Virus record (IMG/VR): IMGVR_UViG_3300002138_000056
Strand: one strand, 5' to 3'
From: a virus
DNA: 38,629 nucleotides
This document shows, in pieces, positions 2,210-36,802 of the stretch (position 1 is its first letter; each line of letters opens with the position of its first letter). A model generated the notes under the pieces. It saw only the letters and a list, made by a program, of their open reading frames with translations. It was not told where the DNA came from and did not search any database. Position numbers and translations under genes: made by a program.

Positions 2210-3607
2210 ATGGCTATTCTGGACATATTCAAGCGAAAAACAACGGCTAGGAACGAAGCAAATACCGTTCTAGGCCAGATGCAATTGGGCAACCAAGTGC
2301 TGTTCGCTACGTCGCAGAAAGGTCCGGTATCCTCACAACTGCTGTATGTCACCACCGGCAGTTCTACCGTCGCAGGACGGACTGTAGATATATCACTTCT
2401 CACCCGCAATTCGACAATAATGGGTTGCGTTGGCGTTAAGGCTAGATCATTGGCGCAACTTTCTGTTAGCGTTATGTATAAAACAGATGACGGTACATTT
2501 GTCGATGCTCTCAAATCTCCAGACGTAAGCAACAGAGATAAATCCAAAGCAAAGCAGGTCACTAACTTACTGAGTGAACCTAACAATTTCCAGAGCATGT
2601 ACGAGTTCTGGTATCAATGGTGCATGTGGCAAGATATAGCGGGCGAGTCTTTTACGTTGTGGTGGAGGAAAGACCAAAAAGACGCTAGCACTACGCCGCT
2701 GGAAATGTATAACCTTGACTCGACTTTAATAACGGTTATTCTGACTCCGACGCGCTATCCTTCGTACCGACTCTCTACCCCAAGCTACGGGTTCTCGAAA
2801 GACCAGCCGTTAGCCTCGCACCAAGTGATGCACGTTAAAGAAGCCGCTTGGCAAGGTTCCAGCGGCTTTAACAAAGGCATTCTGGCTACGGAATTGGTTG
2901 CTCTTGACCAAGACATAGACCTGTACGCTAATTTTGTGATGCAAAATGGCGCTAAACCGTCGGGTATATTTACAACCGATATGGTTATTCCAGACGCGAA
3001 ATATAAAGAAGTCGCGGCGCGGTTGAAAGAGGCCTGGAATGCGATGACCGGCAGTCGTGACGTTGACCAAAGCAAAGCGGGCCAAGGCATGTTGCTCGAT
3101 CAAGGTATGAAATACATGCCGATCGACATGCTAACTTTGCAAGACGCTGATTGTGCCAAACTTAAAGACCAAACCATGAAGCGGATTTGTGGATTGTTTG
3201 GTGTGCCGCCGCAAATGCTTTCATTTGGCGAGGGAAAGTTTAACAATTCGCAAACCATGCTTGACGAGTTTTATAAAACCACGATGTATCCGATGGTAAT
3301 CAACATTGAGCAAAAGCTAAAACAGCATTTGTTAAAGGGTTACCCGAACCTGTGTATCAGGTTTGACACTAAAGATTTCTTAAAGGGCGCTGCGCTAGAC
3401 CAGATGAATTTTGTAGTCTCTGGCGTAAACGCGGGTATTATGTCTCCGAATGAGGCGCGAGAATACTTAAACATTGAAAAGAAAGATGGCGCGGACGATT
3501 TGAAACAAGATACTAAAGCAACTGATTTAATTTCCGGTACTTCGCCGCAAGACACAGGTGGTGGCGGCGGCAATCAAGTTAAGAAAATGAATATCGGAAC
3601 TACATGA
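2210..3607 (+). CDS. Portal protein (HK97-type)
   Basis: 465 aa, located immediately after terL and before the prohead protease. It has a Gly-rich acidic/basic C-terminal tail and an RBS-like gagaga upstream. Confidence 0.85.
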   Translation: MAILDIFKRKTTARNEANTVLGQMQLGNQVLFATSQKGPVSSQLLYVTTGSSTVAGRTVDISLLTRNSTIMGCVGVKARSLAQLSVSVMYKTDDGTFVDALKSPDVSNRDKSKAKQVTNLLSEPNNFQSMYEFWYQWCMWQDIAGESFTLWWRKDQKDASTTPLEMYNLDSTLITVILTPTRYPSYRLSTPSYGFSKDQPLASHQVMHVKEAAWQGSSGFNKGILATELVALDQDIDLYANFVMQNGAKPSGIFTTDMVIPDAKYKEVAARLKEAWNAMTGSRDVDQSKAGQGMLLDQGMKYMPIDMLTLQDADCAKLKDQTMKRICGLFGVPPQMLSFGEGKFNNSQTMLDEFYKTTMYPMVINIEQKLKQHLLKGYPNLCIRFDTKDFLKGAALDQMNFVVSGVNAGIMSPNEAREYLNIEKKDGADDLKQDTKATDLISGTSPQDTGGGGGNQVKKMNIGTT

Positions 3608-3786
3608 CAATACAAGACATGATGGAAACGCTTGCTTCCCAAATAAAGAAAACAAGTGTTAAACTGCCGAAGAAAGCTGGCAGACCCCATAAAATAAAAG
3701 ATAATAACCAATCTATTAAAAACGGGGTAGTTAATGAAGAATCTCATTTTGATTTGCGAAGCTCAACTAAAGCTGGCGGCAGATGA
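3604..3786 (+). CDS. Small Lys-rich hypothetical ORF (60 aa), uncertain
   Basis: Its ATG overlaps the portal stop (ATGA), but the 3' end overlaps the protease start by 53 nt. There is no recognisable motif. Confidence 0.25.
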   Translation: MTIQDMMETLASQIKKTSVKLPKKAGRPHKIKDNNQSIKNGVVNEESHFDLRSSTKAGGR

Positions 3787-4513
3787 GGCAGCAATCGGCG
3801 CTATAGAAGCCAGAGCTACCACGTGGGGCATTCGTGAAGGCGCAGACGGGCGTAGATTCAACTACAAGCCCGAAGGTTTCGCGCAATGGGCAGATGAATT
3901 CTCTAAATCTGATAAGCCTTTGCCGATGTTCCTCAATCACAACGACGAAGGAATGCCAGTAGGCCAATGGGACGAATTCAATTTCGACGAAGAAGGCATG
4001 ACCGCAAAAGGTCGTATTTTTATGAATACGATGAACGGTTCAGACCTGCATACGATTCTAAAAGAATCACCTAAGATGTTCGGTGGCGTTTCTGTTGGGG
4101 CTTATGCTGACGAAGCAATATATACCGACGAAGATGGCGTACCGCTAGATCAAAACGCAGATTATGAAAAAGGATACTTCCAAATCACAAAAGGTGGTTT
4201 GCGAGAAGTATCCGTGGTGATGTATCCCAACAATCTACAATCGGAAATTCAAAAGCTGGAATACTTTGATGACAAAGGCCAGCCGAATCCGCGAACAATT
4301 GAAAAATCTCTGCGTGATGCAGGGTGTTCAAAAAAAGATGCGGCCACCGCGTCTAGTCTGTTCAAAAAGTTGCTGCTTGAGCGTGATGCCCAACTAAAAC
4401 CGATTGAACAAGCCCCACTTCAGAGTGACTCTGACGCGGTGGTAACCGAAGCAGAGATTCTCGCGGCTCTTGAGCAACGCGAACTTCTGTCAATTCTTAA
4501 TAAACGCATTTAA
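3734..4513 (+). CDS. Prohead serine protease (HK97 / S78-like)
   Basis: 259 aa between the portal and capsid genes. The N-terminal half has the protease-family pattern (AIEARATTWG...PLPMFLNHNDEGMPVGQW), followed by an acidic C-terminal tail. Confidence 0.8.
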   Translation: MKNLILICEAQLKLAADEAAIGAIEARATTWGIREGADGRRFNYKPEGFAQWADEFSKSDKPLPMFLNHNDEGMPVGQWDEFNFDEEGMTAKGRIFMNTMNGSDLHTILKESPKMFGGVSVGAYADEAIYTDEDGVPLDQNADYEKGYFQITKGGLREVSVVMYPNNLQSEIQKLEYFDDKGQPNPRTIEKSLRDAGCSKKDAATASSLFKKLLLERDAQLKPIEQAPLQSDSDAVVTEAEILAALEQRELLSILNKRI

Positions 4514-4522
4514 GGAACAATA

Positions 4523-5848
4523 ATGGAAAAAATCCTCGAAAAGCTAGACGCAATTGAAGCGGGCAATACTGCCAAGATTACGGAATCGGTTGAAGCCATT
4601 AAAAATGAATTCACTGAAAAACTGAATGCTTTGGAAGCCAAAATTGCCGAAGTGCAAGCACCGGCTATTATCAAAGCACCGGCTAAGACTCTGAGCCAAG
4701 AAATTAACCGTTCGGTCAAAGAACAACTCCGCGATTTCTACAAATCCAATGCTCGTTCGGAAAAAGAAATCAAGATGTTTGAATCCACTGACCAGTACGA
4801 TGCATACCTTCAAGAAACAGGTTCGCAACTGGGTAATCCTGCCGGATACGGTTCGGGCTACAACGTTGGCGGACGCACTGGTTATGATCCGGTGTTTGTG
4901 GCTCTGCGTCAGACGAATCCGTTGCGTGGCGTTTCGCGCACCGTATCAACTGATGGCTCTGCTTACCAACTGCGTCAAAAGATTGGCAATGCTGGCGCAC
5001 AATGGGGCTATGCAATCCAGAACAACGGCAGCCCGACTACTCAGGACACGCTGATTTGGCAGATGATCCTGCGCGACCTGAACTGCCAATTCCCTGTCCG
5101 TACTGCAACACTGGACGACATTGATGGTCTTGAGTCCAACATTGTTTCGGACATGCTTGCTGAGTTTAGCCAGGTTGAAGCGCAATCAATGGTTCTTAAC
5201 GATGACCAAACCGATTCGCCAGATACGTATGGCGGAACAAATGGTCTGCGTGGATTGAACCAGTACGCTTACACCAGCACGTATGCGGGCGGAACTGTAC
5301 ATCCGGTTATTCTCGGCAGCAGCGGCGTTGCTACTACTAACGGTTTGTCGCAGATTGCTACTTACGATCAGGCTACGACAAACGGCACTTCCGCTACGAC
5401 TAATAATGTAACGTATGCCGACGTTATCAATCTGATCTACAGTCTGCCGAATCAATACTGGACTGAATCAGCCGCTTTCTTGATTAACCCGATCGAACTG
5501 CAAGCAATCCGCGGGTTGGTTGATGATAACGGGCGTCCGATCTATCTGGATGGTCTGGCGCGGACTGATGGCATTGTCGGTCAGTTGCTCGGCTTTGATG
5601 TGGTCGTTAATAAATACGTGGACACGCCGAATTACGCTGGTGTTGATAAACCTAACCTGTATCCGATTTTCTTTGGAGATTGGGCGCGTGGTCACGTTAT
5701 TATCGACCGTCTGAACATGGTTATGCGTAGGTACGACCAAACGGCCCCCGGTTATATAACTTTTTTTGGTGAGAAAAGAGTTGCATCGTCGATACACGAC
5801 GCACAGGCCCTTGTAGCATACCGTTCGACGACCACCGCAAACGACTAA
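4523..5848 (+). CDS. Major capsid protein, HK97 fold, with an N-terminal coiled-coil delta (scaffold) domain
   Basis: 441 aa with a strong RBS (aaggaacaataATG). The first ~105 aa are helical and coiled-coil-like. The gene follows the protease and is itself followed by an intrinsic terminator. Confidence 0.9.
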   Translation: MEKILEKLDAIEAGNTAKITESVEAIKNEFTEKLNALEAKIAEVQAPAIIKAPAKTLSQEINRSVKEQLRDFYKSNARSEKEIKMFESTDQYDAYLQETGSQLGNPAGYGSGYNVGGRTGYDPVFVALRQTNPLRGVSRTVSTDGSAYQLRQKIGNAGAQWGYAIQNNGSPTTQDTLIWQMILRDLNCQFPVRTATLDDIDGLESNIVSDMLAEFSQVEAQSMVLNDDQTDSPDTYGGTNGLRGLNQYAYTSTYAGGTVHPVILGSSGVATTNGLSQIATYDQATTNGTSATTNNVTYADVINLIYSLPNQYWTESAAFLINPIELQAIRGLVDDNGRPIYLDGLARTDGIVGQLLGFDVVVNKYVDTPNYAGVDKPNLYPIFFGDWARGHVIIDRLNMVMRRYDQTAPGYITFFGEKRVASSIHDAQALVAYRSTTTAND

Positions 5849-5853
5849 AGGAT

Positions 5854-5878
5854 GGGGGGAGAAATCCCCCCTCTTTTT
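5854..5878 (+). terminator. Rho-independent terminator immediately after the first capsid gene
   Basis: GGGGGGA (5854-5860), GAAA loop, TCCCCCC (5865-5871), then TCTTTTT (5872-5878). It starts 6 nt after the capsid stop codon. Confidence 0.8.
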
Positions 5879-5898
5879 AACATTTATTGGAATTTAAT

Positions 5899-7137
5899 AT
5901 GAGCCTGATTCTGGAATCCATTAAAGCCGCGCTTAAGAATGGAAAAGCATCTGTAAACTTGAAAGAAGCTGCTTTGCTGACCGGATCGGGTTCTGGCATA
6001 GGCGGCAGAAATATTTACGATGATGCTTTTGCATCATTGCGTATGTTTAATCCTATTCGCGGAGCAGGTGCGCGGGTAGTAGATACAATCGGTTCAGACC
6101 AAACCTTTGTAGTTAAAACTGGTAATGCAACCAATATCCAAAATGGGGCGGTTGTTACTGGTGCAATTGCTGCCTCGGTGTTGACGGTTTCGGCGGTGAC
6201 TAGCGGCACGTTGCGCGTTGGTCAAATCCTTTCCGGCACTGGTGTTGCTGCTGGCACTTATATTAGTTCGCTAGGCACCGGCACTGGCGGCACAGGCACT
6301 TACAACGTGCTTGGTGATACGACTGCCTCAGAAACCACGATTACCGCGGTAGGTAATCCGTGGGGCTATTACCCGATCAACAGCAATAATGCTGCCGCCG
6401 GATACTCGACTTCAATTTGGCAATTGCCGTTAAGAGCCATTCAAGCGTCTGTGCCAATTCGGACTGCAATGCTGTCGGACGTTAATAATCTTGAAGAATC
6501 TATTGTGCGAGACATTGCTTTGGAATTTGCTCAACAAGAAGCTCTGTCGATGATGTTTAATAATGACCAAGCAGCATCGACTACCGGCTATTACGGCGGG
6601 ACGTTGGGCTTGCGTGGGTTGAACAGCTATACCACTTCGGATTCTGCTGCTGCATTTGGTTCAAGCGGAATAGCAATGACGAACGGCATTCATACCGTTT
6701 TAACTTTTACTTTGGCAAGCGCAAGCGCAGTTGTTGTTAATGATCTGTCTGACATATACGCATCCCTGCCACCGCAGTATTTGCTTGATCCTACTTGTGC
6801 ATGGATGATGAGTCCCGCCACTCTTGCGGTGTTGCGTAAACTTGCATCAAATTCAGGTTTGTTTCTTAATCAAGCAGGTGAAGATGGGACAAGTTCTACC
6901 GTCTATCTGATGGGGAAACCAGTACGAATAAATCCCTACATGGACGACCTTGCTGCCGGTAAGTTCGCAATTTACTTTGCGGCGTGGGATCAGTTTGTAA
7001 CGATAGCTGACAATGAAACAATGGACATCCAGATGTTCGATCAAACACAACCGGGGTATGTAACCCTGTTTGCGGAGAAGCGCGTTTGTTCGACAATCCG
7101 CGATGTTTTTGCTGGTGTCCGTTGTTATCACTCATAA
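5899..7137 (+). CDS. Second HK97-fold capsid protein, a paralogue of 4523..5848. It lacks the delta domain and has an inserted Gly/Thr-rich domain.
   Basis: Alignable by eye with the first capsid protein. Examples: [51 protein letters not shown] vs WQMILRDLNCQFPVRTATLDDIDGLESNIVSDMLAEFSQVEAQSMVLNDDQ; [10 protein letters not shown] vs GGTNGLRGLN; [16 protein letters not shown] vs DQTAPGYITFFGEKRV. The start is either ATG 5899 or TTG 5887, with no obvious SD. Confidence 0.8.
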
Positions 7138-7143
7138 AAAATC

Positions 7144-7785
7144 ATGCCGGTCGAAAACCAAACGTATTCGTCCAATCGCAACCCGTTTAATTATGTAAAA
7201 ATTGAACAGGTGGCGAGAGACTATGTAACTCAATGGTTGACGCTAGATGAAATTACGCAGCAACTAAACTTGTTTGAAGATGAATCTCAGGATTCTTATT
7301 TGACTAGTTTAGAAGTTGCGACTCGGTTTGCCATTGAGGATTACTTGGGTATGGCTGTATTTCCTACCCAATATCGAATCTATTACGGCAACCCCGGCCT
7401 TACAAGCAGTGCGGTATATCTGGACCTTCCTGAAGTTTCGCAAGGCCGTAGCGGGGCTGCAATCAACTCTGTAAGTCTTTGGTCTGGACTGCCTCCGGTG
7501 TTAACCGCTTTAGCAACCAATACTTATTGGTATGACGCGACCGGCAATAGAGTAATCCTGCAAAGTTTGCCAAATACGGTAGATCAATACAATGCAAATC
7601 CGTTAGAAGTGCTGTACACAGTCCCGGCTAATTCGATCATGCAATATCCGGTTATTAAACAAGCTGGATTGTTGCTGCTTACCCATTTATATAATAACCG
7701 TTCTAATACAACCGAAGTGGCGCTGAAAAGTATTCCTTTTGGCGTTGATGCTTTGTTGAGGCCGTATAAACCGCTGATAATGTAA
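7144..7785 (+). CDS. Head-tail adaptor/connector (gp6-like domain with a C-terminal extension)
   Basis: 213 aa. The segment LTLDEITQQLNLFEDESQDSYLTSLEVATRFAIEDYLGMAV resembles the gp6-like connector family. It is the first gene after the capsid genes. Confidence 0.5.
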   Translation: MPVENQTYSSNRNPFNYVKIEQVARDYVTQWLTLDEITQQLNLFEDESQDSYLTSLEVATRFAIEDYLGMAVFPTQYRIYYGNPGLTSSAVYLDLPEVSQGRSGAAINSVSLWSGLPPVLTALATNTYWYDATGNRVILQSLPNTVDQYNANPLEVLYTVPANSIMQYPVIKQAGLLLLTHLYNNRSNTTEVALKSIPFGVDALLRPYKPLIM

Positions 7786-10729: not shown

Positions 10730-13405
10730 ATGGCAGTTATTGGTTCGCTATCCGTAAAACTCGGATTAGTCACAGTAGAGTGGGATCAGGCGACAGCGAA
10801 AGCTAAAGCGCAAGCCAAAGACTTGCAGGGCGCGTTTAAAAACTTAACGTCTGAACTTTCAGTTTTAAGCCAGCATTTTAAAACGCTTGGCGGGATTACC
10901 TCTGTTGGGGCAATAGGCTTTACTGCTTTATTTGCTAGTACAGCAGCTTACGCAAATGAAGTAAAAGACCTAGCCGAAGGCTTTGATATAACCATATCGA
11001 AAGTATTGCAATTCCGCGACGCGCTGCAAACATCCGGCGGCAAAGCAGAAAGCGCAGCAAAGATGCTTTCTACTTTGTTTACAAAAATAGAAGAAGGCAA
11101 AAAAGGTAGCGAGCCGGTCATTGAAACATTCCGCAAACTCGGAATTAGCTTTGCAGAATTGCAAACAACAAAACCTGAAGATGCTTTGAACAAAGTATTT
11201 ATTGGGCTTAAAAATATAGGGTCTACAACAGAAAGAATAAAGTTATTGCGCGAGGTGATGGGTAAGGGCGGCGTTGGTCTTGGTGTTGCAGAATTATCGG
11301 ACAAAATAAATCAATCAACCGCTGCTTTCAAGAAACATGAAGATGGTCTAAAAAGATTTGGCGAGTTATCCGACAATTTAAAATCGTCAATGGATAATCT
11401 CAAGATTGCTTTTTCTGATTTGGTTAGTCCGTTTATCGGTGAAGGCAAAAGATCGGTAGAGCAATTTAAGATAGCGTTGTTAGCTATTGCAAGTGTTGCG
11501 GTCGTTACTCAATTAACAAAAATAGTTGGTCTGTTTATTGCATTAAATAAAGCGATGGGAACAGGCGCAAAAATAGCCGGTACGATGGCTGCGCTAAGTG
11601 GAGCAAAAGGCATTGCATTAGTAGGCGGCGCTGTTGCGGCTTATGCAATCCTAAATAAAATTCTACAAGACCCTGAAGAACGGATAGCCGAATTAGAATT
11701 AGAAAAACAACAGTTCGAAGGAAGAAGTACAGCAATTAGTGAAATTAGTAAAAGACAAATAGCTAAGATTAACAAAGAAATAGAATTACTTAAGACAAAA
11801 ATTCCAGACAGAGGACTTAATTTAACTCCTCCTGATACAACAAAAGAAGATGAAGAAGAAAAAGATGCAGCTAAAGCATCAAGAGATTCTGACGCTGCAC
11901 GAGCAAAGAATGCCGCTGCCGCTGCATTATTAAAAATAATGGAGAGAGAGAATCAATTAAAAATTGAAGGTTTAACGACAGATAAATGGGCGCTGGAGAT
12001 TAAAAAAGCGGATATAGAATTTGAAAAAGGAAAAGCAAAAATTCTTGCTGAATATGCAGCAGATCGAGTGGCGGCTAAAGATTCGGTAGAACTAGAAGCT
12101 GTTGCCGGAGAAAAAGCAGCAATTGCGTTAAGTACCGCTTATAAAAAATCGGAAGGCGCGAAAAAATTTGCAGCAGCAAGTAGAGATAAGGAAATTGAGG
12201 ATTTAAAACGGCAAACAAAATTGCAGGAAGAATTATTTGAGTTTGAAAAGAAAGCATTTGATCTTAGATTGTTGGCGGTGAGTACTGGTCAATATGAGAT
12301 TCAAGCCAAAACAATTTTGCTAGAAAAAGAAAAAGCAATTGCACAAGTTATAGCAGATAAAAATGAAAAGTTACGTCCCACAGGTCAATCAGCAGCGGCG
12401 ATAGCAGCAATAGAAGTAGATGCGCGTTCAAAAATAGCTCGAATTGAAATCGATGCTGCTGCTCGTGATGTATTAAGAATTGCAAACAAAGAAAAAGAAT
12501 TCCGCATCCTTGACGCACAAAGCATCACGTCCGCACGACTACATGAATTTGATTTAGCAAAAATAGCGTTAGAAGATAAGCGTATATATTTGACTGATCT
12601 TGAATACAAAAAACAAAATGAATTGCTAGAATTAAATAGAAGATTGTTGGAATTGGAACAGGAACGGCTTGCAGTAACAGACAGATACGGCGTAGGCGAA
12701 CGAGCCGACAAGGAACGCACTCGCATAGATGAAGCAATAAAGCGCGAAAAAGAATTATCAGCAGAGCGTAATATTTCACTAGAAAACGAAGCTACAAGAC
12801 AACGCAGTTTTGTAGAAGGATGGGATTATGCTTTCAGGCAGTATTCCGCAAATGCGTCCAATGCTTTTAAAGCGGGCGAAGAAGCGTTTACGTCTTTTAC
12901 AACCAATATGGACCGCGCATTAGACCAGTTTGTTACTACCGGAAAATTGTCGTTTAAGGATTTAGCCTCTAGCATAATTAAAGACTTAATCAGAATACAA
13001 ATGCGGGCGCAAATAACTTCAATGTTTAGCGGTTTGGGATCATTATTTGGTGGCGGAAACTCATCCCTTGCCGCTGATATTGGTTCTGCTGGTGGTGGCG
13101 CAAATTTTGCAGCAGTCGCTGCTGGAGGTTACATGGCAGACGGGGGGCCTGTAGCTGCAAATACGCCTTACATGGTAGGCGAGCGTGGTCCTGAATTGAT
13201 TATTCCAAAAGGCGCAGGAACAGTTATCCCCAATAATCAGCTTGCAGGAGCCATGGGAGGGCCTCAGATCACTTACAACGGTCCATACATAGCGAACATG
13301 CAAGCCATTGATACGCAGTCGGCTACGCAGTTCCTAGCGCGAAATAAGCTATCTGTTTACGCCGCCAATCAATCCGCTGCGCGGTCTTTGCCCACGAGTA
13401 GATAA
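10730..13405 (+). CDS. Tape measure protein
   Basis: 891 aa with long Ala/Lys/Glu-rich coiled-coil segments, internal hydrophobic Gly/Ala stretches and a C-terminal GERGPELIIPKGAGTVIPN motif. Its position after the chaperones fits. Confidence 0.9.
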   Translation: MAVIGSLSVKLGLVTVEWDQATAKAKAQAKDLQGAFKNLTSELSVLSQHFKTLGGITSVGAIGFTALFASTAAYANEVKDLAEGFDITISKVLQFRDALQTSGGKAESAAKMLSTLFTKIEEGKKGSEPVIETFRKLGISFAELQTTKPEDALNKVFIGLKNIGSTTERIKLLREVMGKGGVGLGVAELSDKINQSTAAFKKHEDGLKRFGELSDNLKSSMDNLKIAFSDLVSPFIGEGKRSVEQFKIALLAIASVAVVTQLTKIVGLFIALNKAMGTGAKIAGTMAALSGAKGIALVGGAVAAYAILNKILQDPEERIAELELEKQQFEGRSTAISEISKRQIAKINKEIELLKTKIPDRGLNLTPPDTTKEDEEEKDAAKASRDSDAARAKNAAAAALLKIMERENQLKIEGLTTDKWALEIKKADIEFEKGKAKILAEYAADRVAAKDSVELEAVAGEKAAIALSTAYKKSEGAKKFAAASRDKEIEDLKRQTKLQEELFEFEKKAFDLRLLAVSTGQYEIQAKTILLEKEKAIAQVIADKNEKLRPTGQSAAAIAAIEVDARSKIARIEIDAAARDVLRIANKEKEFRILDAQSITSARLHEFDLAKIALEDKRIYLTDLEYKKQNELLELNRRLLELEQERLAVTDRYGVGERADKERTRIDEAIKREKELSAERNISLENEATRQRSFVEGWDYAFRQYSANASNAFKAGEEAFTSFTTNMDRALDQFVTTGKLSFKDLASSIIKDLIRIQMRAQITSMFSGLGSLFGGGNSSLAADIGSAGGGANFAAVAAGGYMADGGPVAANTPYMVGERGPELIIPKGAGTVIPNNQLAGAMGGPQITYNGPYIANMQAIDTQSATQFLARNKLSVYAANQSAARSLPTSR

Positions 13406-14085: not shown

Positions 14086-14675
14086 ATGTAATTGCTCCAG
14101 TCGATGGAACAAATAATATCCGATACGCGGATTTTGTTCGTGTGACTACTGGCGACGCGGTATATAGATTTGCAACAACACCTAAGGCTTTAACAATTCC
14201 TGCGGTTGATGCTTTGCCTTTTGACGCTGTTGGGCAGTTGATGAAAGTCGGAAGCGCTCAACGAGATATTAAAAGCACAGCAAACGAAACTACGTTCACT
14301 TTAGTGGGCATAGATACCGCAATGCTTGGTTGGGTTCTTGGGCAAAATGTTAAAGGCGCGAAAATCGAAGCGTGGCATGGTTTCTTTGATACAGATGAAG
14401 TTTTAATTACAGATGGAGGCACCGGCGGGCTTTACCAATTCTTCAATGGTTTTATAAATTCATTTTCCATCAACGAAGAATGGATGGAAGAACTCAGGAC
14501 ATACGTCGGCATCATTACTGTTAGTGCATCATCCATCCAGTTAATACTTCAGAACAGAACTGCCGGGCGTTATACAAATGATAATTCGTGGCAATTTTTT
14601 AATAACGGCGACACCAGCATGAACAGAGTTCCGTTTATTTCAACTATTAACTATTACTTTGGCAAGACGCAATGA
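14082..14675 (+). CDS. Minor tail / tail-tip protein
   Basis: 197 aa, ATGA-coupled, lying between the distal-tail candidate and the J-like protein. Confidence 0.4.
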   Translation: MNVIAPVDGTNNIRYADFVRVTTGDAVYRFATTPKALTIPAVDALPFDAVGQLMKVGSAQRDIKSTANETTFTLVGIDTAMLGWVLGQNVKGAKIEAWHGFFDTDEVLITDGGTGGLYQFFNGFINSFSINEEWMEELRTYVGIITVSASSIQLILQNRTAGRYTNDNSWQFFNNGDTSMNRVPFISTINYYFGKTQ

Positions 14676-15106
14676 TTTATCGGGCAACAAAATTTCACAA
14701 ACCAATAATTATTGATTTGATGAAACAGTTTGCCGATGAGAGTCCGGTAGATTATTGCCATTCATACTCGGATATGGAATATGGTAATAAATTGCTAGAC
14801 GAAATCTTTGCTGGCCGAGGCGCTATATTTATGGCGGATAATTACGGAATACTTATGTCCATTATTCTTCCGTGTATTTGGTCGGATAGAATATTTGGGT
14901 TACATGAATTAGCTTGGTATGTAAAACCCGAAAATCGTGGCTCAAGGGCAGGATATAAATTATTAAAAGAATATAACGAATATGGAGAACTATTAAAAAC
15001 AATAGGGCGGATTAAGTATTACACCATGAGCAAATTGGTAACTAGCCCAGATGTAGATTATTCCAAATTTGGTTATCGTAAACAAGACGAAATTTGGGTC
15101 AAATAA
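14672..15106 (+). CDS. GNAT-like acetyltransferase-fold protein embedded in the tail module
   Basis: 144 aa. ELAWYVKPENRGSRAGYKLLKEY resembles GNAT motif A (V-x-P-E-x-RG-x-x-x-G-x-x-LL), and the C-terminal SKFGYRK resembles the GNAT beta-strand. It is ATGA/TAATG-coupled on both sides to tail genes. Confidence 0.45.
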   Translation: MIYRATKFHKPIIIDLMKQFADESPVDYCHSYSDMEYGNKLLDEIFAGRGAIFMADNYGILMSIILPCIWSDRIFGLHELAWYVKPENRGSRAGYKLLKEYNEYGELLKTIGRIKYYTMSKLVTSPDVDYSKFGYRKQDEIWVK

Positions 15107-18842: not shown

Positions 18843-19328
18843 ATGGCAATATTTTCAAAAAATACACTTACACAAATAAGCGGATTTGATAATCCAATTA
18901 TTGCTGGCGAATTAGTATGGGAACAACAAACGTATTGGAATTTGACTTTTAAAAATGCTTCGACTGGCGATGCTTATGATTTAACAGGAGCGACATTAGA
19001 CGCTCAAATTCTTCGCCGCAATTTAAGCAATATTCGAGACACCCGCTACGGGCTTACTTTTGATATTGCAGACTTTGATCCTGAACCCGATCCAGTAAAC
19101 CTTACAATAACAAATGTTGTTGAGGAAAATGGCGCGTTTACGCTTGTAATCAACGATGCAGATTGGGAAGTTCTTTCCAGTTCGGTGCAGCTTGATATTA
19201 ATGCAGAAAATTGTGTAGGTTTTAGCGGCAGAATAAAAATAAGTATGCCGGAACAAGGCACAACTCCAGCGCAAGACTTAATTATATTTTTGTTGTTTTT
19301 AATGCGTTCTGATGGAGTAACTAACTAA
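18843..19328 (+). CDS. Hypothetical virion-associated protein (161 aa)
   Basis: RBS ggagaag. It lies between the two fibre genes and is TAATG-coupled to the giant fibre gene. No motif was recognised. Confidence 0.5.
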
Positions 19329-22300
19329 TGGCTAATCTAACAATTGAAGTGGTGGACGGAAATAATATAGACGTCATTGTAGACTCTAGCGTTTCCGGTG
19401 TTGGAATAGAAAGTGTTGCTATTGTTTATGACGATCCTATTTATTATTTAGAATTTACATATACAAACGGCACTACCGAGTTGGTTGAACTACCTGCGGT
19501 GGCTACTGGCGTTCAATCATTTAACACTCGTATAGGCTTGGTAACGCTTGAATCGAGTGATGTAACTGATGCATTAGGTTATACGCCGCCAACTCCAAGC
19601 GGCACAGGGGCAACTGGAACGTGGTCTATATCTATTAACGGCAACGCGGCAACTGTAACAACCAATGCTAATTTAACAGGACCAATTACTTCCGTTGGAA
19701 ATGCAACTTCTGTTGCTGCACAAACAGGTACAGGTTCAACTTTTGTAATGCAAGCCTCGCCTTTGCTTACCACGCCAAACATAGGTACACCGTCGGCGGG
19801 AACATTAACAAATGCTACAGGACTACCTATTGCAACAGGCGTATCTGGTCTTGGCGCAAATGTAGCAACGTTTCTTGCAACGCCATCTAGTGCTAATCTT
19901 ATTTCAGCCGTTACAGATGAAACGGGCAGTGGATCGCTGGTATTTGCGACATCACCTACTCTTGTAACTCCAGCGCTGGGCACTCCGTCGGCATTGATTG
20001 GTACTAACATTTCTGGGACTGCTGCAAGTCTGACCGCAGGAAATGTAACTACAAACGCTAATCTTACCGGCGCTGTGACTTCGACAGGAAATGCTACTTT
20101 ACTTGGGTCGTTTTCTTCGGAGCAATTATCTGATGCTTTAACTAACGAAACAGGAACGGGCGTAGCTGTGTTTGCTACTTCGCCCACGTTAATTACTCCT
20201 GCTCTTGGCACTCCGTCCGCTATGGTTGGCACAAACATTACCGGAACGGCTACAGCTTTTACTGCTAGCAATGTTACAACAAACGCAAATCTGACAGGGC
20301 CGATAACCTCAGTAGGAAATGTAACTGCGATAACCGCTGGCGCAATTATTAACGCAGACATTAACGCTGCTGCTGGCATTGAAGATACCAAACTAGCCAC
20401 AATTGCGACAGCGTTAAAAGTTAGCAATTCAGCAACTACGGCAACATCATCAAACACCGTCAGTGCAATTGTTGCTAGGGATGCAAGTGGAAACTTTACC
20501 GCAGGAACTGTCACGGCAGCATTAACCGGCAATTCCAGCACCGCCACCGCATTGGCAACAGGCAGGACAATTGAAATTACAGGCGACCTAATCTACGCAT
20601 CGCCTAGTTTTGACGGGTCTGCAAACGTCACAGCAGCAGGCACGCTGGCAACCGTAGCAACGGCAGGGGCCACAGGAAGCAGCACCGCCATACCAGTAGT
20701 GACCATTAACTCCAAAGGCTTAACGACCAGCATCACTACGGCAGCAGTCATTGCACCGGCAAGCACCTTATCAGGCAACACGCTAGCGGCAGGCGTTACC
20801 GGCTCGTCGCTGACAGGTCTTGGCACAATTGCTAATTTGTCTGTCACAGCAGGAACAATTTCGACAACACCATCTTCCGCAACAGACATTGCAAACAAAG
20901 ATTATGTCGATACCGTAGCGCAAGGGCTAGACCCAAAAGCCTCATGCGTTGCTGCTACTACAGCTAACATCACTCTATCTGGCACGCAGTCCATTGATGG
21001 CGTTGCCTTGATTGCGACAGATAGATGCTTGGTCAAAAATCAAACAGCGCCAGCAGAAAATGGAATTTACGTTGTTGCTTCTGGAGTCTGGGCCAGAGCA
21101 GCCGACATGAATACATGGGAAGAAGTGCCAGGAGTATTTGCTTTTATTGAACAAGGCACCACGCAAGCAGACACTGGGTGGGTTTGCACAAGCAACGCTG
21201 GTGGCACGTTAGGCACCACTGCAATCACTTTTGTGCAATTTGCCGGAGTTGGCAGTTACACCGCCAGCACTGGTTTAACGTTAACTGGAACGGCGTTTAG
21301 CTTAACTGCGCCAGTCACAGTCGCGCTTGGCGGAACAAATGAAACGTCTGCCGGAATAGCATCATTTAACAACATCACTGGTTACACCGCTACGGGTGCT
21401 ACGGGAACAACAAGCACTGATTTAGTGTTTTCGACTTCCCCTACTCTTATAACTCCTGCACTTGGCACGCCATCTGCGTTGATCGGAACTAACATCACAG
21501 GAACTGCATCTGGATTTACTGCTGGCAACGTAATTACTAATGCAAATTTGACTGGAGACATTACGTCAGTTGGCAATGCTACTACGTTGACCAATGCTCC
21601 AGTTATTGCAAAAGTGTTGACGGGATATATTTCTGGCGCTGGCACAGTGACAGCCACAGACTCAATTCTCCAAGCAATTCAAAAACTTGATGGCAATAAT
21701 TCGACTAACGCTAACTTGACGGGGCCAATAACGTCAGTCGGCAATGTTACATCAATTGCAAGTCAAACAGGTACGGGAACTAAATTTGTTGTTGATACTT
21801 CGCCAACGTTAGTAACTCCTGATTTAGGCACGCCATCTGCGTTGATAGGCACAAATATCACCGGCACAGCAACGTCTTTTACTGCAAGCAACGTTACTAC
21901 AAACGCAAATCTAACAGGTGGTGTTACTTCAGTTGGAAATGCAGCAACTGTAATAACAAATGCCAATTTGACTGGTGGAGTAACGTCTGTCGGCAATGCA
22001 ACAACAGTAGTAACTAACGCTAATCTTACAGGGGCAGTTACTTCAATTGGTAATGCAACATTGCTAGGAAGTTTTTCTTCCGCACAACTAGCAACTGCTT
22101 TAACTGACGAAACCGGTTCTGGTGCAAACGTATTTGCTACAAGCCCTACGTTAGTAACACCTGAATTAGGCACACCGACTACTGTTGTTTTAACTAACGC
22201 AACAGGATTGCCTTTGACTACTGGTGTAACGGGTAATCTTCCTGTTACAAATTTAAATAGCGGCACCGCAGCTTCAGCATCCACATTCTGGCGTGGCGAC

Positions 22301-25141
22301 GCGACTTGGGCTACCCCACCTGACGTAGATACTGGTATTACTCAACTCACAGGTGGAGTGACTGCCGGGCCAGGGAATGGAAGCCAAGTTGCAACAGTAA
22401 TAACTAACGCTAACCTGACCGGAGATATTACTTCCGTCGGCAACGCAACATCATTAGGTAGCTTTTCTTCAGTTACTCTTGCTACCGCATTGACCGACGA
22501 AACAGGCACTGGTGTAGCCGTATTTGCTATTAACCCTTCACTTACAACGCCCGATATAACTGGATTAGCGACTGGCTCTGGTGTAGCTACTGCAAATACT
22601 GCTTCTACTCTTGTTGCGCGTGATGCAAGTGGAAACTTTGCGGCAGGAACAATTACAGCGGCACTTACTGGAACGGCAAGCGGGAATCTAGTCAGTGGTG
22701 GCGCTCTTGGAACACCATCTAGCGGTATTGCCACCAACCTCACGGGTTTACCACTTACTACGGGCGTCACGGGCACCTTGCCCGTAGCCAACGGCGGCAC
22801 AGGATTAACGGCGGGAACATCCGGTGGCGTCTTAGCTTATACCGCTACGGGCGTATTAGCATCATCCGCTGCATTAGCAGCCAGTGCGCTGGTGGTTGGC
22901 GGCGGTGCGGGGGCGGCACCAGCCACAACCACAACCGGCACCGGCGTGGTCACCGCGCTCGGCGTGAATACCGGCTCTGCGGGTGCGTTTGTGGTCAACG
23001 GCGGCGCTCTCGGCACCCCCGCCTCCGGCACAGTAACCAACCTGACCGGCACTGCCTCAATCAATATCAACGGCACCGTAGGCGCTACGACTCCTGCTGC
23101 TGGGGCGTTTACGACGCTGAGTGCGACCTTAGACGCAACCATATACGGCGTGACGGTAGGCCGTGGCGCGGGTGCTATATCGACGAATACGGCGGTAGGT
23201 GCTAGTGCGTTGGCGGCTAACACAAGTGGTTTTAATAATGTGGCTCTTGGTCAAGGTGCGCTTTTAACAAACACTGGTGGCGCATTTAATACGGCCATTG
23301 GGCGTATATCCTTAAATCTTTCAACAGGGGATTACAACACTGCTGTTGGCGGCAATTCTTTACCATCAAATACAACTGGCTCAAACAATACTGCGGTGGG
23401 TGCACAAGCTCTTAACTTCAACACCACCGCCTCTGACAACACTGCCGTGGGTTATCAGGCTGGGTATAGCAATACTACTGCTGATGAGAATGTGGCTATT
23501 GGCGCATTAGCCATGACTAGCACTACTACAGGAAACGCGCAAGTAGCAGTAGGTCGCAGTGCTTTAAGAGATAACACAACTGGTTCTGAAAATACTGCCG
23601 TTGGTAGAACTACGCTTGCTGGAAATACCACAGGAAGCCAAAATTCAGGCATGGGGCGTGGTGCATTACAAAATAATACAACTGGCTCTAGCAATACTGC
23701 TGACGGTGCGTTTGCATTATTCTCCAACACCACCGCCAGCAACAACACTGCTGTAGGTTATCAGGCGGGGTATACAGGTACTACCGCCACACAAGTAACA
23801 GTATTTGGTGTTCAAGCAGGATATACAAACAACGCAAACAACAACGCATTTTTTGGATACCAAGCAGGGTATTCAAATACTACAGGCACAAACAATGCGG
23901 CTTTTGGAGCATATCGCCCTTTGTACACAAATACAACTGGGGCGTTTAATACTGCAATTGGTGACCAAGCACTTCTCTCCAACACCACCGCCAGCAACAA
24001 CACCGCTGTGGGGTATCAGGCGGGGTATACAAATCAAACGGGAACAGGCTTTACTGCTTTAGGCTATCAAGCTGGATACACCGCCACAGGAAACTATAAT
24101 ACTGTAATTGGAAAAAGTGCAGGGGTTGGTTTAACAACAGGCACCAATAATACTTTTATTGGCGTAAACAACGCGGCAGAGGGTGCCGGTCATTATGTAA
24201 CAACTGGTTCATTAAACACTATTCTTGGTGGCTATAACGGCAACCAAGGTGGCCTCGACATTCGCACCGGAAGCAACAACATTGTGCTGTCGGATGGGGA
24301 TGGGACTCCTCAGTTTATCGTAAACGGCATTAACCAAGCGGGATTGTTTGGGCTTCCGTTATCTACTTGGGATTCGAATCGTTATCGTTCTTTGCAGTTT
24401 GGTAACGGTACAACTGCACGGTATTTTTCTATTGCCCAACAATTTACCGCCGCTTGCGCGGGTTCGCTGTTGTGGAACGCCTATGGTGATGGCGACAACA
24501 CGTTTAAGTATGTAGCCGGGGGCGACAAGGCGGCGATGATTCAAATTTCATCGGACGCAGTAAATATCTATGGAGCACCCACAGGCACAACGGGGGGCGC
24601 AATCTCTTGGTCAACCTTGTTAGGCATCCAAAAAGATTACTCCGTTGCACTTCAAGGTGCTTCAGGGCAATCCGGCACAGGCATCACCTTCCCCGCTACC
24701 CAAAACGCATCCTCCAACGCCAACACGCTGGATGACTATGAAGAAGGGACTTTTACACCTACGCTGTCAACATCTGGCACAGTTGGTACTCCTACTTATT
24801 TAGCGCAGGAGGGAGCCTATACAAAAATTGGTAGATTGGTTACCGTTCAAATTCGAGTGCAAATTAACGCTTGGTCTGGATCGCCGACAGGCAATTTGCG
24901 GATTGCTAGTTTGCCGTTTACGGCTGCAGCGACCGGTACTGGTCAAGCAGGTTCCGTAGGTTACATATCCGGGGCTACGTTTTTAGCTGGGTATACTGAT
25001 TTTGGTGTTTTGACGGGCAACGGCACCACATATTGCGAAATAGTCCAGTCAGGTAGCACTCTTGGTGCTACCGCAGTGGCAGCGTCAACCGTTGTGGCGG
25101 CGATTTTTGATGTAAATATCAGTATTTTGTATTTTGTCTAA
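19328..25141 (+). CDS. Giant repeat-rich tail fibre (1937 aa)
   Basis: At least 9 copies of TNANLTG-x-(V/I)TS(V/I)GNAT and about 6 copies of FATSPTL(V/I)TPALGTPSA-x-x-GTNI(T/S)GTA. There is an internal KDYVD...QSIDGV...DRCLVKNQ...NGIY...G-W-RA-D fibre domain, internal LPVANGGTG anchor motifs, an [10 protein letters not shown](S/T)NTT repeat array, and a C-terminal [13 protein letters not shown] domain. Confidence 0.9.
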
Positions 25142-29048: not shown

Positions 29049-29627
29049 CTAAAAAAACTCCCTCAAAATTGGCGCACGTTTCTTGTCTCTCAACTTTCGC
29101 AAAGCCTTACTCTCGATAGCCCGGATTCGTTCTTTTGACAATCCGTGATGATTCCCAACCTCCTGAAGCGTTAAATCTTTTTCAAATCGTTCTACTAAAA
29201 TATCTTTTTCTCGCGGTTTGAGCGTTCCCAAAACCTCATTCACGATTGCAGATGTTTCTGCCGCCAGCAGTGATTCCTCTGGAGACGGTAGGTAATCTGT
29301 TCGGCTCTTTTGTTCTAGCAAATGCTGCACGAGGTTTGCATCGATGGCCCGCTCACCGCTATTGGTTTTGAGCTTGATAGTAAGTTGTTGCTCCGTCCAA
29401 AGGTCGGTGGGTGCCGCGCCAAGCACCTCCATAATTAACTTTGCGTTCTGCGAAAACTCTCCGCTTTGCAAGATTGGCGCTTCTCGCATTGCGACGAGGT
29501 TGTTGATCCTGCCGATACCGATTTCGCAAGCCCGCTCGAATTCGGCAACCGAAACGTAACCTTGTGCTTCGATTGCCGACAACAACAAATTGTTGCGTAC
29601 GCTGACTTTGAGTCTAAATTCTTTCAT
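29049..29627 (-). CDS. Sigma-70 region 3/4-like DNA-binding protein lacking region 2, with an N-terminal HTH-like domain
   Basis: The C-terminus LKPREKDILVERFEKDLTLQEVGNHHGLSKERIRAIESKALRKLRDK closely parallels primary-sigma regions 4.1/4.2 (compare [30 protein letters not shown]). No region 2 (core-binding and -10 recognition) sequence is present in the 192 aa. Confidence 0.6.
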   Translation of the reverse strand: MKEFRLKVSVRNNLLLSAIEAQGYVSVAEFERACEIGIGRINNLVAMREAPILQSGEFSQNAKLIMEVLGAAPTDLWTEQQLTIKLKTNSGERAIDANLVQHLLEQKSRTDYLPSPEESLLAAETSAIVNEVLGTLKPREKDILVERFEKDLTLQEVGNHHGLSKERIRAIESKALRKLRDKKRAPILREFF

Positions 29628-29628
29628 T

Positions 29629-29934
29629 TTAGAACGCTATTTCGTCGTCAATATCAGCAAAAGTTTTAAGTTCTTTTTTTGGTTCTATTTTTTGCTCTAC
29701 AGGCTGCGATGCCTTTGCCAACTCTAAAACTTTCACTTGAAACGCCGCATTGATATAAGCGTGATTCCAGTATTTGCCAGTAGCTGCATTCTTTGTGCTC
29801 GGCATAGAAACAAACTCACCTTTTTGTGACTGCTGAATTCGACAGCCTTTCAACTCCAGGAACGCATCTTTGCCTTCCGACGAATGCAGGTTGATGTTGA
29901 AACTACGGTCGTGCCAAACGATTGAAATGTGCAT
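29629..29934 (-). CDS. Small SSB-like protein (101 aa) with an acidic-aromatic C-terminal tip
   Basis: It ends in ...FADIDDEIAF, like the E. coli SSB tip DFDDDIPF and the acidic Phe-terminal tail of T7 gp2.5. It lies directly downstream of the ERF and exonuclease genes. The core LELKGCRIQQSQKGEFVSMPSTK...GKYWNHAY resembles a SpoVG-like beta pattern. Confidence 0.45.
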   Translation of the reverse strand: MHISIVWHDRSFNINLHSSEGKDAFLELKGCRIQQSQKGEFVSMPSTKNAATGKYWNHAYINAAFQVKVLELAKASQPVEQKIEPKKELKTFADIDDEIAF

Positions 29935-30551
29935 TATTTAACCTTTTTGAGTTGAGATAACATTTTGTCCACGGTGTCCAAAAAGGCGACAACCGCAGTT
30001 TCCAGTTCAAGAATACGCGCTGGATCACGCTTAAAACGAACGATGAACAATTGTAAATGCTCCGGCAGGTCAGGACGGAAACTGACGAAATCGCACCAAT
30101 CCCTGCCGGTTACCGCCATCTGCCACATCATCTGGTTGCGATAGGCTGCCGGGACAACACCGGCCAGCAGGTAAGCCAAATGGGTGCTGACCTTTGGACA
30201 TTTGATCTCCACTTCTCCTGAATTGCCTACCAAGCCATCAGGAGAAGCACCAGCGCGTTCAATTGTCGGATGGATACATAACCCTACCTCATCCACCGAA
30301 AACCCTGTCTCGGCTTCGTAGGCGCTTCGGGCAAGCGGTTCCGTATCTGAGCCGAACTGCATGTGGACGTTGGTGTAATCTGACCCTTGAGGCTTGCCGG
30401 TCAGAATCTCCGCAACGAGCTGTGCCTGGTAATCCCTAAACCCCGCTGTTTCTGGCTTCATAAGCACATTTGAAATCATGCTGGCAGTAACCCGTCCGGC
30501 ACGAGCTGCGAGCCATTCTGGTGTGCCTTGCACTGCATCAATGACTTTCAT
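29934..30551 (-). CDS. YqaJ-type (lambda Exo-like) recombination exonuclease
   Basis: 205 aa. The N-terminal GTPEWLAARAGRVTASMISNVL is the YqaJ family signature. It is ATGA-coupled to the annealase gene. Confidence 0.8.
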   Translation of the reverse strand: MKVIDAVQGTPEWLAARAGRVTASMISNVLMKPETAGFRDYQAQLVAEILTGKPQGSDYTNVHMQFGSDTEPLARSAYEAETGFSVDEVGLCIHPTIERAGASPDGLVGNSGEVEIKCPKVSTHLAYLLAGVVPAAYRNQMMWQMAVTGRDWCDFVSFRPDLPEHLQLFIVRFKRDPARILELETAVVAFLDTVDKMLSQLKKVK

Positions 30552-31132
30552 GCCGCCTCCAGAGCAGTTTTGCGGTTGTTTTTTGCTCCGGTAAGGATGG
30601 CCATTGCAACTGTATCTTGAGCAACTTGTGCGGCTTTGTATGCGGATTTAAAGGCAGTTTGCAATGCGTCCATCGAGCCAGCATCTTGCAATGTTTTTAG
30701 GAAATAAGTGCAATCCATAGCAATTTTTGGCTTTGCAGCACTGGCCGCGTTCCCGTCGTCGTCTAGCTCGGTGGAAACACCTGCGGCGGCAGACAAACTA
30801 TAACGACGACAATAAGTCAATGCCGACCCGTATCCCTGAGCGTCAACTTTAGACACAGGCAAGGCCAACACTCCGCAGGAGATCCATTCACCAGAAGCGT
30901 GGAGAAGGGTTGTCTCTACCCGCACCTCGTCTTTTTCGCTTGGCTCGACGGTCTGGATGTAGCTCAAACCGTTAGCACTGAATGCTGCTCGAATGGCTTC
31001 AACTACGCTGGCAAGGTCAGCATAGCGACTTTTGAAAAACGGGTTTGCAGAGTCTTTGATAGCTCCCTTCATGGCTCCCTGCGCTTTTGCTAATGCTGCC
31101 GCCAATTCTTTGATGCTTTCTGATTTAGTCAT
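30548..31132 (-). CDS. ERF-family single-strand annealing protein
   Basis: 194 aa. IKELAAALAKAQGAMKGAIKDSANPFFKSRYADLASVVEAIR and CRRYSL are characteristic of the ERF superfamily. Confidence 0.8.
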   Translation of the reverse strand: MTKSESIKELAAALAKAQGAMKGAIKDSANPFFKSRYADLASVVEAIRAAFSANGLSYIQTVEPSEKDEVRVETTLLHASGEWISCGVLALPVSKVDAQGYGSALTYCRRYSLSAAAGVSTELDDDGNAASAAKPKIAMDCTYFLKTLQDAGSMDALQTAFKSAYKAAQVAQDTVAMAILTGAKNNRKTALEAA

Positions 31133-36574: not shown

Positions 36575-36802
36575 ATGATAACGAAACAGATTTTAGAACT
36601 AGTGGCTCAACAGCCGTTGAATGCAAAAGAAATTATTGAAAAACTGAACGGCAGCAAAACAGTTGTGTTTGCTACTTTAAGTTCGTTATCTCGGCGTGGT
36701 TTAATTAGTCGAGAAGCTGTTAAAAAGACCGAAGCTGGCAGGGGCCGCAAAACCATCTACATTTATCGAGCGAACAACACAGCGGCTGAAATCACATGCT
36801 AA
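36575..36802 (+). CDS. Winged-helix DNA-binding protein (75 aa)
   Basis: ILELVAQQPLNAKEIIEKLNGSKTVVFATLSSLSRRGLISRE is a MarR/ArsR-like wHTH pattern. Confidence 0.5.
   Translation: MITKQILELVAQQPLNAKEIIEKLNGSKTVVFATLSSLSRRGLISREAVKKTEAGRGRKTIYIYRANNTAAEITC

Follow-up and report, generated by a model that had tools for sequence, protein, structure and literature searches.

A 38,629-nucleotide stretch of viral DNA (IMG/VR record IMGVR_UViG_3300002138_000056; hereafter the window) carries two adjacent genes, MCP1 and MCP2, which encode diverged capsid proteins of the HK97 family and which recur side by side in a lineage of phages with genomes of about 38 kb. We favor, with moderate confidence, the reading that MCP2 is the vertex (penton) subunit of a shell whose hexons are built from MCP1, by analogy with gp24 of phage T4 and MCPp of phage Jabs. 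The proteins themselves are already in public databases; what is new is the conserved dual-capsid-protein system in an abundant lineage of small phages. The two genes are the following:

4523-5848, + strand: MCP1, HK97-family major capsid protein of 441 amino acids with an N-terminal delta (scaffold) domain; proposed to form the hexons
5899-7137, + strand: MCP2, HK97-fold capsid paralogue of 412 amino acids without a delta domain; proposed vertex (penton) subunit

The original prediction, made by eye from the translated open reading frames (ORFs), held that the two proteins are paralogues alignable over the HK97 core. BLASTP comparison bears this out, with 37% identity over 282 amino acids (E=9e-47), and the alignment contains all four of the shared blocks then named, WQxxLR, PxRTAxLxD, GGTxGLRGLN and DQTxPGYxTxFxEKRV. 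The N-arm piece aligns separately with 49% identity over 49 amino acids (E=4e-9). Both proteins belong to the Pfam family PF05065 (Phage_capsid), MCP1 scoring 105.2 bits (E=5e-30) and MCP2 73.7 bits (E=2e-20) against a gathering score of 24.2 bits, and both match PHROG 10 'major head protein' (phrog_10, E=2e-31 for MCP1). By sequence, the two proteins have a single relative of known structure, the RcGTA capsid, whose entry 6TB9 matches MCP1 with E=1e-12. For the start of MCP2, we preferred the ATG at 5899 to an in-frame TTG at 5887 on the basis of the orthologue starts and the conserved spacer.

The fold of the second protein had been left to structure prediction, and the model obtained is of the HK97 type. 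An AlphaFold2 monomer model of MCP2, computed on an alignment of 111 sequences, reached a predicted local distance difference test score (pLDDT) of 75 and a predicted template modeling score of 0.61, superseding a single-sequence run with a pLDDT of 31. In a Foldseek search of the PDB, the top matches of the model were all HK97-fold shells, including the RcGTA capsid 6TB9 (E=9e-17, template modeling score 0.78 by target), HK97 gp5 (1OHG, E=4e-11), Mycofy1, the cf-PICI capsid and T5; in BFVD, the model matched capsid proteins of uncultured aquatic phages. As modeled, MCP2 has the complete HK97 fold with its N-arm, E-loop, spine helix, and P and A domains, and homology suggests the same fold for MCP1. 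Comparison with five close relatives gave ratios of nonsynonymous to synonymous substitution rates (dN/dS) of 0.04-0.07 for MCP1 and 0.04-0.10 for MCP2, and both genes are thus under strong purifying selection.

These results bear on the idea that MCP2 acts outside the lattice, either as a decoration or cement protein or as an assembly-only factor that nucleates or chaperones MCP1. We regard this as improbable: none of the four HK97 elements (N-arm, E-loop, P domain and A domain) is truncated, the contact regions are highly conserved, the purifying selection extends over the whole of MCP2, and no decoration protein known to us has an entire HK97 fold. The small non-HK97 fold by which decoration and cement proteins are recognized is absent here, and MCP2 shares with some cement proteins only a 74-amino-acid module inserted into its E-loop. 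That module is nevertheless found on cement or minor head proteins (P0260). In addition, residues 1-27 of MCP2 align to the C-terminal portion of the delta domain in MCP1 and could bind scaffold elements, and the interval from major capsid gene to head-tail adaptor is a frequent place for decoration genes.

Conservation of the gene pair

Among GenBank phages, the sole relative of MCP2 is found in the Methylophilaceae (LD28) phage P19250A (KX815270, 38,749 bp), which carries the pair in the same order. Its gp5 is 58% identical to MCP1 and annotated as 'gene transfer agent capsid protein', and its gp6, a 352-amino-acid 'hypothetical protein', is 48% identical to MCP2. P19250A is the only cultured relative; it has the same genome size and gene order as the window and a hairpin in the same spacer, and its gp6 is without the E-loop module. 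The other 24 GenBank phages matched by MCP1 gave one match each. The original prediction had considered a second capsid paralogue unusual for an HK97-like phage of about 38 kb, and this is true of the GenBank phages and the literature that we searched.

Related loci in metagenomic data have this gene pair as well. A scan of IMG/VR with MCP2 identified 80 loci, and these show the order portal-protease-MCP1-MCP2-adaptor wherever the sequence suffices. The converse scan with MCP1 alone gave 78 loci, and MCP2 is the next gene in all 56 that have at least 1.1 kb of downstream sequence. In GTDB genomes, we found MCP2 on six contigs of metagenome-assembled genomes (MAGs), with the pair present in four of the five that could be analyzed and the fifth starting at MCP2; a search for prophage copies in isolate genomes returned these six MAG contigs only. 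One of them, JAHEYD010000010.1 (38.9 kb), is binned with an archaeal 'Nitrosotalea sp.' MAG; it carries the portal-protease-MCP1-MCP2-adaptor module, has the length of an entire phage genome, and almost certainly comes from a phage and was mis-binned. The remaining GTDB matches lie in MAG bins of Betaproteobacteria, Rhodocyclaceae, Burkholderiaceae and Alphaproteobacteria. The link to a host is thus indirect, through the Betaproteobacteria bins and the Methylophilaceae strain infected by P19250A. Phages of the P19250A-like lineage abound in metagenomes, many of which are from freshwater, and their copies of both genes are often automatically labeled 'HK97 family phage major capsid protein'.

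Altogether, the ORFs are intact in one isolate and in ~130 metagenomic loci that are independent of each other. Members of the MCP1 group are at least 55% identical to one another and members of the MCP2 group at least 46%, with at most 45% between the groups; the existence of two separate orthologue groups agrees with one duplication that predates the sampled clade. The notion that MCP2 is a duplicate that is redundant or in decay, or that it stems from an error of gene calling or assembly, could draw on the fact that tandem duplicates do arise and can persist briefly, and on the 'hypothetical protein' label of P19250A gp6. The number of intact loci together with the isolate, the low dN/dS, the separation into orthologue groups and the conservation of the spacer effectively refute it, and we give it next to no weight. 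The resemblance to encapsulins, some of which are likewise encoded by adjacent HK97-fold genes, does not extend to the gene context, as the pair sits within a phage module running from terminase, portal and protease to adaptor and tail genes, including on the MAG contigs where the sequence allows this to be seen.

Related loci rank differently by the two genes. Locus L012 is 85% identical to the window in MCP1 and 65% in MCP2, while for locus L008 the values are 64% and 73%. This unlike ranking suggests recombination between the genes, possibly at the conserved spacer.

Features that distinguish MCP2 from MCP1

The two proteins differ consistently at their N termini, in the axial domain and, in part of the clade, in the E-loop. 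The first difference concerns this segment:

4523-4849, + strand: delta/scaffold-like N-terminal region of MCP1 (amino acids 1 to ~109), delimited by pairwise alignment and lengths across the clade

The first ~60 amino acids of MCP1 have no counterpart in MCP2 in the alignment, and the N-terminal ~28-34 amino acids of MCP2 correspond to the end of this region of MCP1. Across the clade, 111-125 residues (median 116) precede the GGR motif in MCP1, in comparison with a median of 34 in MCP2. The original prediction had described this asymmetry as a coiled-coil delta domain of ~105 amino acids against ~35; the lengths stand, at ~115 and ~34 residues before GGR in the window, while the helical, coiled-coil character of the MCP1 region is a judgment from sequence only. 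In its ~110 amino acids ahead of the core, with the gene for an S78 protease directly upstream, MCP1 has the arrangement of a capsid protein with a fused scaffold, of which MCP2 keeps only the ~28-34-residue remnant.

The second difference lies in the axial segment between GLRGL and DQTxPG. Measured as sequence length, it spans 168 amino acids in MCP1 (163-177) and 145 in MCP2 (140-146); the ranges are disjoint, and the segment is ~23 amino acids shorter in all MCP2 orthologues. The segment comprising N-arm, E-loop and spine measures 125-132 amino acids in MCP1 and 129-133 in MCP2, or ~202-204 where MCP2 carries the insert. Paralogues of the same genome are most alike in the P-loop (59% identity), N-arm (52%), spine helix (51%), E-loop strand 1 (47%) and C-terminal P-domain sheets (44%), and least alike in the axial domain, with 31%, and in what remains of the N-terminal region, with 26%. 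The paralogues thus share the elements that contact neighboring subunits in the HK97 lattice, as predicted if they co-assemble in one lattice.

The third difference is an insertion confined to MCP2:

6130-6354, + strand: 74-amino-acid six-stranded beta module in the E-loop of MCP2 (amino acids ~78-152), from the alignment and the AlphaFold2 model

The insert has no counterpart in MCP1 or in P19250A gp6. In the model, its strands (residues 83-151) have a pLDDT of 81-92 and lie between the two long strands of the E-loop. The lengths of MCP2 across the clade are bimodal, ~340-352 amino acids without the insert (the P19250A type) and 412-416 with it, and because about half of the clade is without the module, we take it to be accessory to MCP2 and not the reason for its existence. 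One apparent outlier, a 513-amino-acid homologue (P0079), was considered as a possible double insert and rejected; its extra ~100 amino acids are N-terminal and probably reflect a mis-called start.

The insert corresponds to parts of two PHROG families, phrog_21413 (E=6e-17) and phrog_38233 'tail fiber' (E=6e-9). Searched alone, its sequence belongs to no family in Pfam and finds matches in the PDB at chance level only. In contrast, an exhaustive HMMER search with the 81-amino-acid insert segment recovered 2625 representative proteins at E<=1e-3, often with 2-22 tandem copies of the module and in carriers of up to 3700 amino acids. The carriers sampled include RHS-repeat proteins, a tail sheath of the DUF3383/phrog_205 type, several tail-fiber and tail-collar proteins, and a cement ('minor head') protein of the XM1-gp53/Pam3-gp6 type (P0260; PF23982/PF22758, phrog_2122). 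Judged from these carriers, the insert appears to be a promiscuous mobile module of exposed virion surfaces. Such beta modules of ~70 amino acids, represented here at 6124-6366 (+ strand), are numerous and uncatalogued, and the module may merit a domain family of its own. A relationship between the insert and the 1937-amino-acid fiber protein of the same genome was also considered, from several tblastn matches of ~30% in 19505-22867 (E from 6e-4 to ~1, with composition correction off), and rejected; as G, T, A, S and V are abundant in both, the similarity was taken to be compositional.

Finally, the two genes are separated by a spacer of 50 nucleotides with a terminator-like element:

5854-5879, + strand: hairpin GGGGGGA-GAAA-TCCCCCC followed by TCTTTTT, in the spacer between MCP1 and MCP2

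We scanned both strands of the window for perfect stems of at least 6 bp with at least 5 G-C pairs and a T-rich tail, and this hairpin, which comes straight after the stop codon of MCP1, was the only one in the whole 38.6 kb. When the spacers of the related loci were folded individually, nearly all of the ~70 formed a GC-rich hairpin in the same place, with energies of -15 to -24 kcal/mol and usually trailed by a T-run. Stems and loops differ by subclade (for example GGGGGCATTTGCCCCC, GGGGCGGCTTCGGTCGCCCC and GTGGCGGGGAACAATCCTCGCCAC), and it is therefore the structure of the hairpin that is conserved and not its sequence. A covariation test on a MAFFT alignment, which is not structure-aware, recovered five pairs, two of them with compensatory changes; because of this property of the alignment, the argument for conservation rests on the separate folding of the spacers and the uniqueness of the hairpin. 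With ~27 nucleotides between the hairpin and the ATG of MCP2, there is no room for a promoter, and MCP2 and everything downstream must be transcribed by read-through. The Shine-Dalgarno-like motif is AAGGAA before MCP1 and TGGAAT before MCP2. A lower expression of MCP2 than of MCP1 is plausible from these sequence features.

Proposed vertex role and known two-protein shells

In its position next to MCP1, its lack of the long N-terminal region and its reduced axial segment, MCP2 resembles the penton paralogues T4 gp24 and Jabs MCPp. Of the options that the original prediction had listed, the evidence favors a dedicated penton protein combined with a capsid variant displaying an extra domain, and argues against a conventional decoration protein. 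Under our preferred interpretation, MCP2 would have arisen by tandem duplication of an HK97-type major capsid gene and then have become specialized for the vertices. MCP1, with its fused delta domain, would drive procapsid assembly together with the portal and the S78 protease and form the hexons. Having lost most of the delta domain, MCP2 would probably be unable to nucleate shells alone, and by retaining the N-arm, the base of the E-loop, the spine helix and the contact elements of the P domain it would fit into the lattice of MCP1, where its shorter axial domain would suit the fivefold positions. In a T=7 shell, the size expected for a genome of 38.6 kb, the 11 pentons would then contain 55 copies of MCP2. 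The hairpin after MCP1 would lower the transcription of MCP2 and of the head-completion and tail genes relative to MCP1, and in the subclade of the window the E-loop module would be placed on the capsid corners as an accessory adhesion or stabilizing domain.

Several points weigh against this interpretation. Most HK97-like T=7 phages build their pentons from the hexon protein, and a separate penton protein is thus not required. Axial domains vary faster than the peripheral elements in most HK97 capsid proteins, and the axial domain is also the least conserved region inside each orthologue group here, so the regional pattern of identity between the paralogues is suggestive only. The structure was modeled for the MCP2 monomer, with the fold of MCP1 taken from homology. 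The gene for the major tail protein, which is needed in hundreds of copies, lies downstream of the hairpin as well, which means that read-through must be substantial and that the hairpin, if it acts as a terminator, fixes no ratio of MCP1 to MCP2. Our literature search found no proteomic or structural data on P19250A, and in the papers found to mention this phage it is absent from titles and abstracts; we infer the presence of MCP2 in the virion, its copy number and its fivefold location from the genes.

A different possibility, which we consider unlikely but somewhat less so than a role outside the lattice, is that MCP2 is a lattice subunit without specificity for pentons. It would occur in mixed capsomers or at non-vertex sites, such as hexons beside the portal or the vertices or positions tiled at random as in two-component encapsulins, and serve mainly to display the E-loop module. 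The HK97 fold and the conserved contact elements of MCP2 fit such a role, the module is found in only part of the clade, and with 37-39% identity the paralogues are far more alike than T4 gp23 and gp24 (17%) or the Jabs pair (18%), making mixed capsomers sterically conceivable. There is also a documented case of adjacent shell genes whose products co-assemble with irregular tiling, the Family 2B encapsulins (PMC12407261). Display cannot be the core function, though, as MCP2 is equally constrained in the half of the clade that is without the module, and the absence of the delta domain and the trimming of ~23 axial amino acids in all MCP2 orthologues point to a geometrically distinct position. 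We know of no tailed phage with random tiling.

The closest known parallel to a dedicated MCP2 penton is Jabs, a Mycobacterium abscessus siphophage with a T=9 capsid, in which cryo-EM located MCPh (ORF72) in the hexons and MCPp (ORF73) in the pentons (bioRxiv 10.64898/2026.07.24.740622). ORF72 has 594 amino acids, of which residues 1-266 are removed, and forms 80 hexons; ORF73 has 257 amino acids, was modeled from residue 3, has a 'markedly smaller' axial domain and a bent spine helix, and forms 11 pentons; the preprint terms the pair unprecedented among icosahedral phages (bioRxiv 10.64898/2026.07.24.740622). The window shares with Jabs the siphophage type, the adjacent HK97-fold genes with the long one first, the second protein without a maturation domain and with a smaller axial domain, and the lack of a cement or decoration protein. 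The differences are that the Jabs roles are proven by cryo-EM whereas those of MCP1 and MCP2 are read from the genes, that the Jabs pair is 18% identical in comparison with 37-39% here, and that the Jabs shell is T=9 and stabilized by disulfides while the genome size suggests T=7 for this phage. A short helix also remains at the N terminus of MCP2, and part of the clade has the E-loop insertion. Compared by description, the Jabs proteins resemble the capsid proteins of Che8 and T5, and MCP1 and MCP2 that of RcGTA. The lower divergence and the different, RcGTA-like subfamily point to a duplication independent of, and younger than, those of Jabs and T4.

T4 is a ~170-kb myophage in which gene 24 adjoins gene 23 on its downstream side, and its insertion domain is present in both gp23 and gp24. 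Like MCP1 and MCP2 as proposed, its paralogous HK97-fold proteins divide the labor, gp23 forming the hexons and gp24 the pentons at 17% identity (PMC12407261). The extra domain of the T4 capsid is attached via linkers equivalent to the E-loop (PMC9546572), and the MCP2 module thus sits at a topologically similar site; unlike in T4, only MCP2 carries an insertion, and only in a subclade. T4 further differs in its prolate T=13 head, its separate scaffolding core and its decoration proteins Soc and Hoc. Among the best 50 BFVD matches of the MCP2 model, a gp23 of the T4 type appeared only at rank 45 and gp24 not at all, and no T4 capsid was named among the best 50 in the PDB. The resemblance of MCP2 to gp24 would therefore be an analogy produced by independent duplication and not common descent, and the same probably applies to Jabs, as far as its description tells.

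Other systems match in part. HK97 and RcGTA have the same order of an S78 protease gene and a capsid gene with a delta domain, and no separate scaffold; in contrast to MCP1 and MCP2, they use one protein for pentons and hexons and have no second paralogue. The Family 2B encapsulins Enc1 and Enc2 are also encoded by adjacent HK97-fold genes and show conserved differences in the axial domain (PMC12407261), but these are cellular T=1 nanocompartments tiled at random from both proteins, their gene context includes neither portal nor protease nor terminase, and their proteins are not specialized by symmetry position. Colossus, a giant prolate siphophage of the phiCbK-like group, has duplicated its major capsid gene, and the second copy has diverged (PMC3556154); this copy has been translocated by ~21 kb and occurs in one member of the group, whereas MCP2 is adjacent to MCP1 and present clade-wide. 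According to a 2025 encapsulin paper, HK97 shells with T>1 other than T4 use one protein for pentamers and hexamers (PMC12407261), and a 2026 review describes the two-protein arrangement as rare and linked to the large genome of T4. In the literature searched, Jabs was the only tailed phage besides T4 with a proven pair.

To the broader proposition, that the P19250A-like lineage represents an independent and comparatively young division of labor between hexon and penton proteins, in a small, probably T=7 capsid and with a scaffold-free penton protein serving as a platform whose E-loop can gain or lose the surface module, we assign about even chances. If it is true, vertex specialization is more common than assumed, arises repeatedly and needs no large genome, contrary to the view that only large-genome phages like T4 can 'afford' two capsid genes. 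The pair would then be an evolutionary intermediate for specialization of the gp23/gp24 type, and its 37-39% identity would allow the changes that make a penton protein to be read directly: the delta domain is lost, the axial loops are trimmed, and a handful of residues are type-specific. With its module, the E-loop would be a site at which insertions are naturally tolerated and through which domains could be displayed at the corners of the capsid. Labels such as 'major capsid protein' on both genes, or 'hypothetical' on the second, hide such cases in annotation pipelines, and the cultured P19250A makes the hypothesis directly testable.

Gene neighborhood and further observations

The 38.6-kb window looks like a complete genome of the siphovirus type. 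The genes that flank the capsid pair or are mentioned below are these:

62-526, + strand: TerS
523-2190, + strand: TerL
2210-3607, + strand: portal
3734-4513, + strand: prohead maturation protease of the S78 family (PF04586, E=4e-8; PHROG head maturation protease, E=1e-10)
7144-7785, + strand: head-tail adaptor (gp6-like connector; PF05135, E=5e-6; phrog_40/442 head-tail adaptor)
10730-13405, + strand: tape-measure protein
19328-25141, + strand: 1937-amino-acid fiber protein

The S78 protease gene adjoins the 5' side of MCP1 in all relatives with enough upstream sequence. ORF, Pfam and PHROG analysis placed no scaffold gene between protease and MCP1 and gave no separate scaffold or recognizable decoration gene in the head module. 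On the other side of the pair, the adaptor gene begins 7 nucleotides past the MCP2 stop and follows MCP2 wherever the downstream sequence suffices. Beyond it lie further connector and tail genes, then tail and fiber genes, a holin and an endolysin; a block of recombination and regulation genes is on the - strand, and methyltransferases and an HNH endonuclease occupy the end of the window. With the HNH endonuclease (38012-38494, + strand) at the end and TerS/TerL at the start, the genes have the order of HK97-like cos packaging, which suggests that the genome is complete and was opened immediately 5' of the terminase genes.

In the 1937-amino-acid protein, G, T, A, S and N are extremely frequent and short repeats are numerous. 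Presumably a long fiber, it is matched by no Pfam family and only by the PHROG families 'virion structural protein' and 'tail spike'. Within the tail module, the ORF at 14672-15106 (+ strand) matches phrog_1249 'acetyltransferase' (E=5e-7), an odd annotation amid tail genes. There are two DNA methyltransferase genes, at 32386-33573 and 36796-38037 (both + strand), the latter encoding a ParB-like N-terminal domain fused to the methyltransferase (phrog_498, E=1e-157; phrog_620 ParB-like, E=7e-53). Beside an Erf/exonuclease pair (29934-31132, - strand) lies a gene for a protein resembling RNA polymerase sigma factors (29049-29627, - strand; phrog_351, E=1e-16), which may direct late transcription of the structural operon that holds the putative terminator between MCP1 and MCP2.

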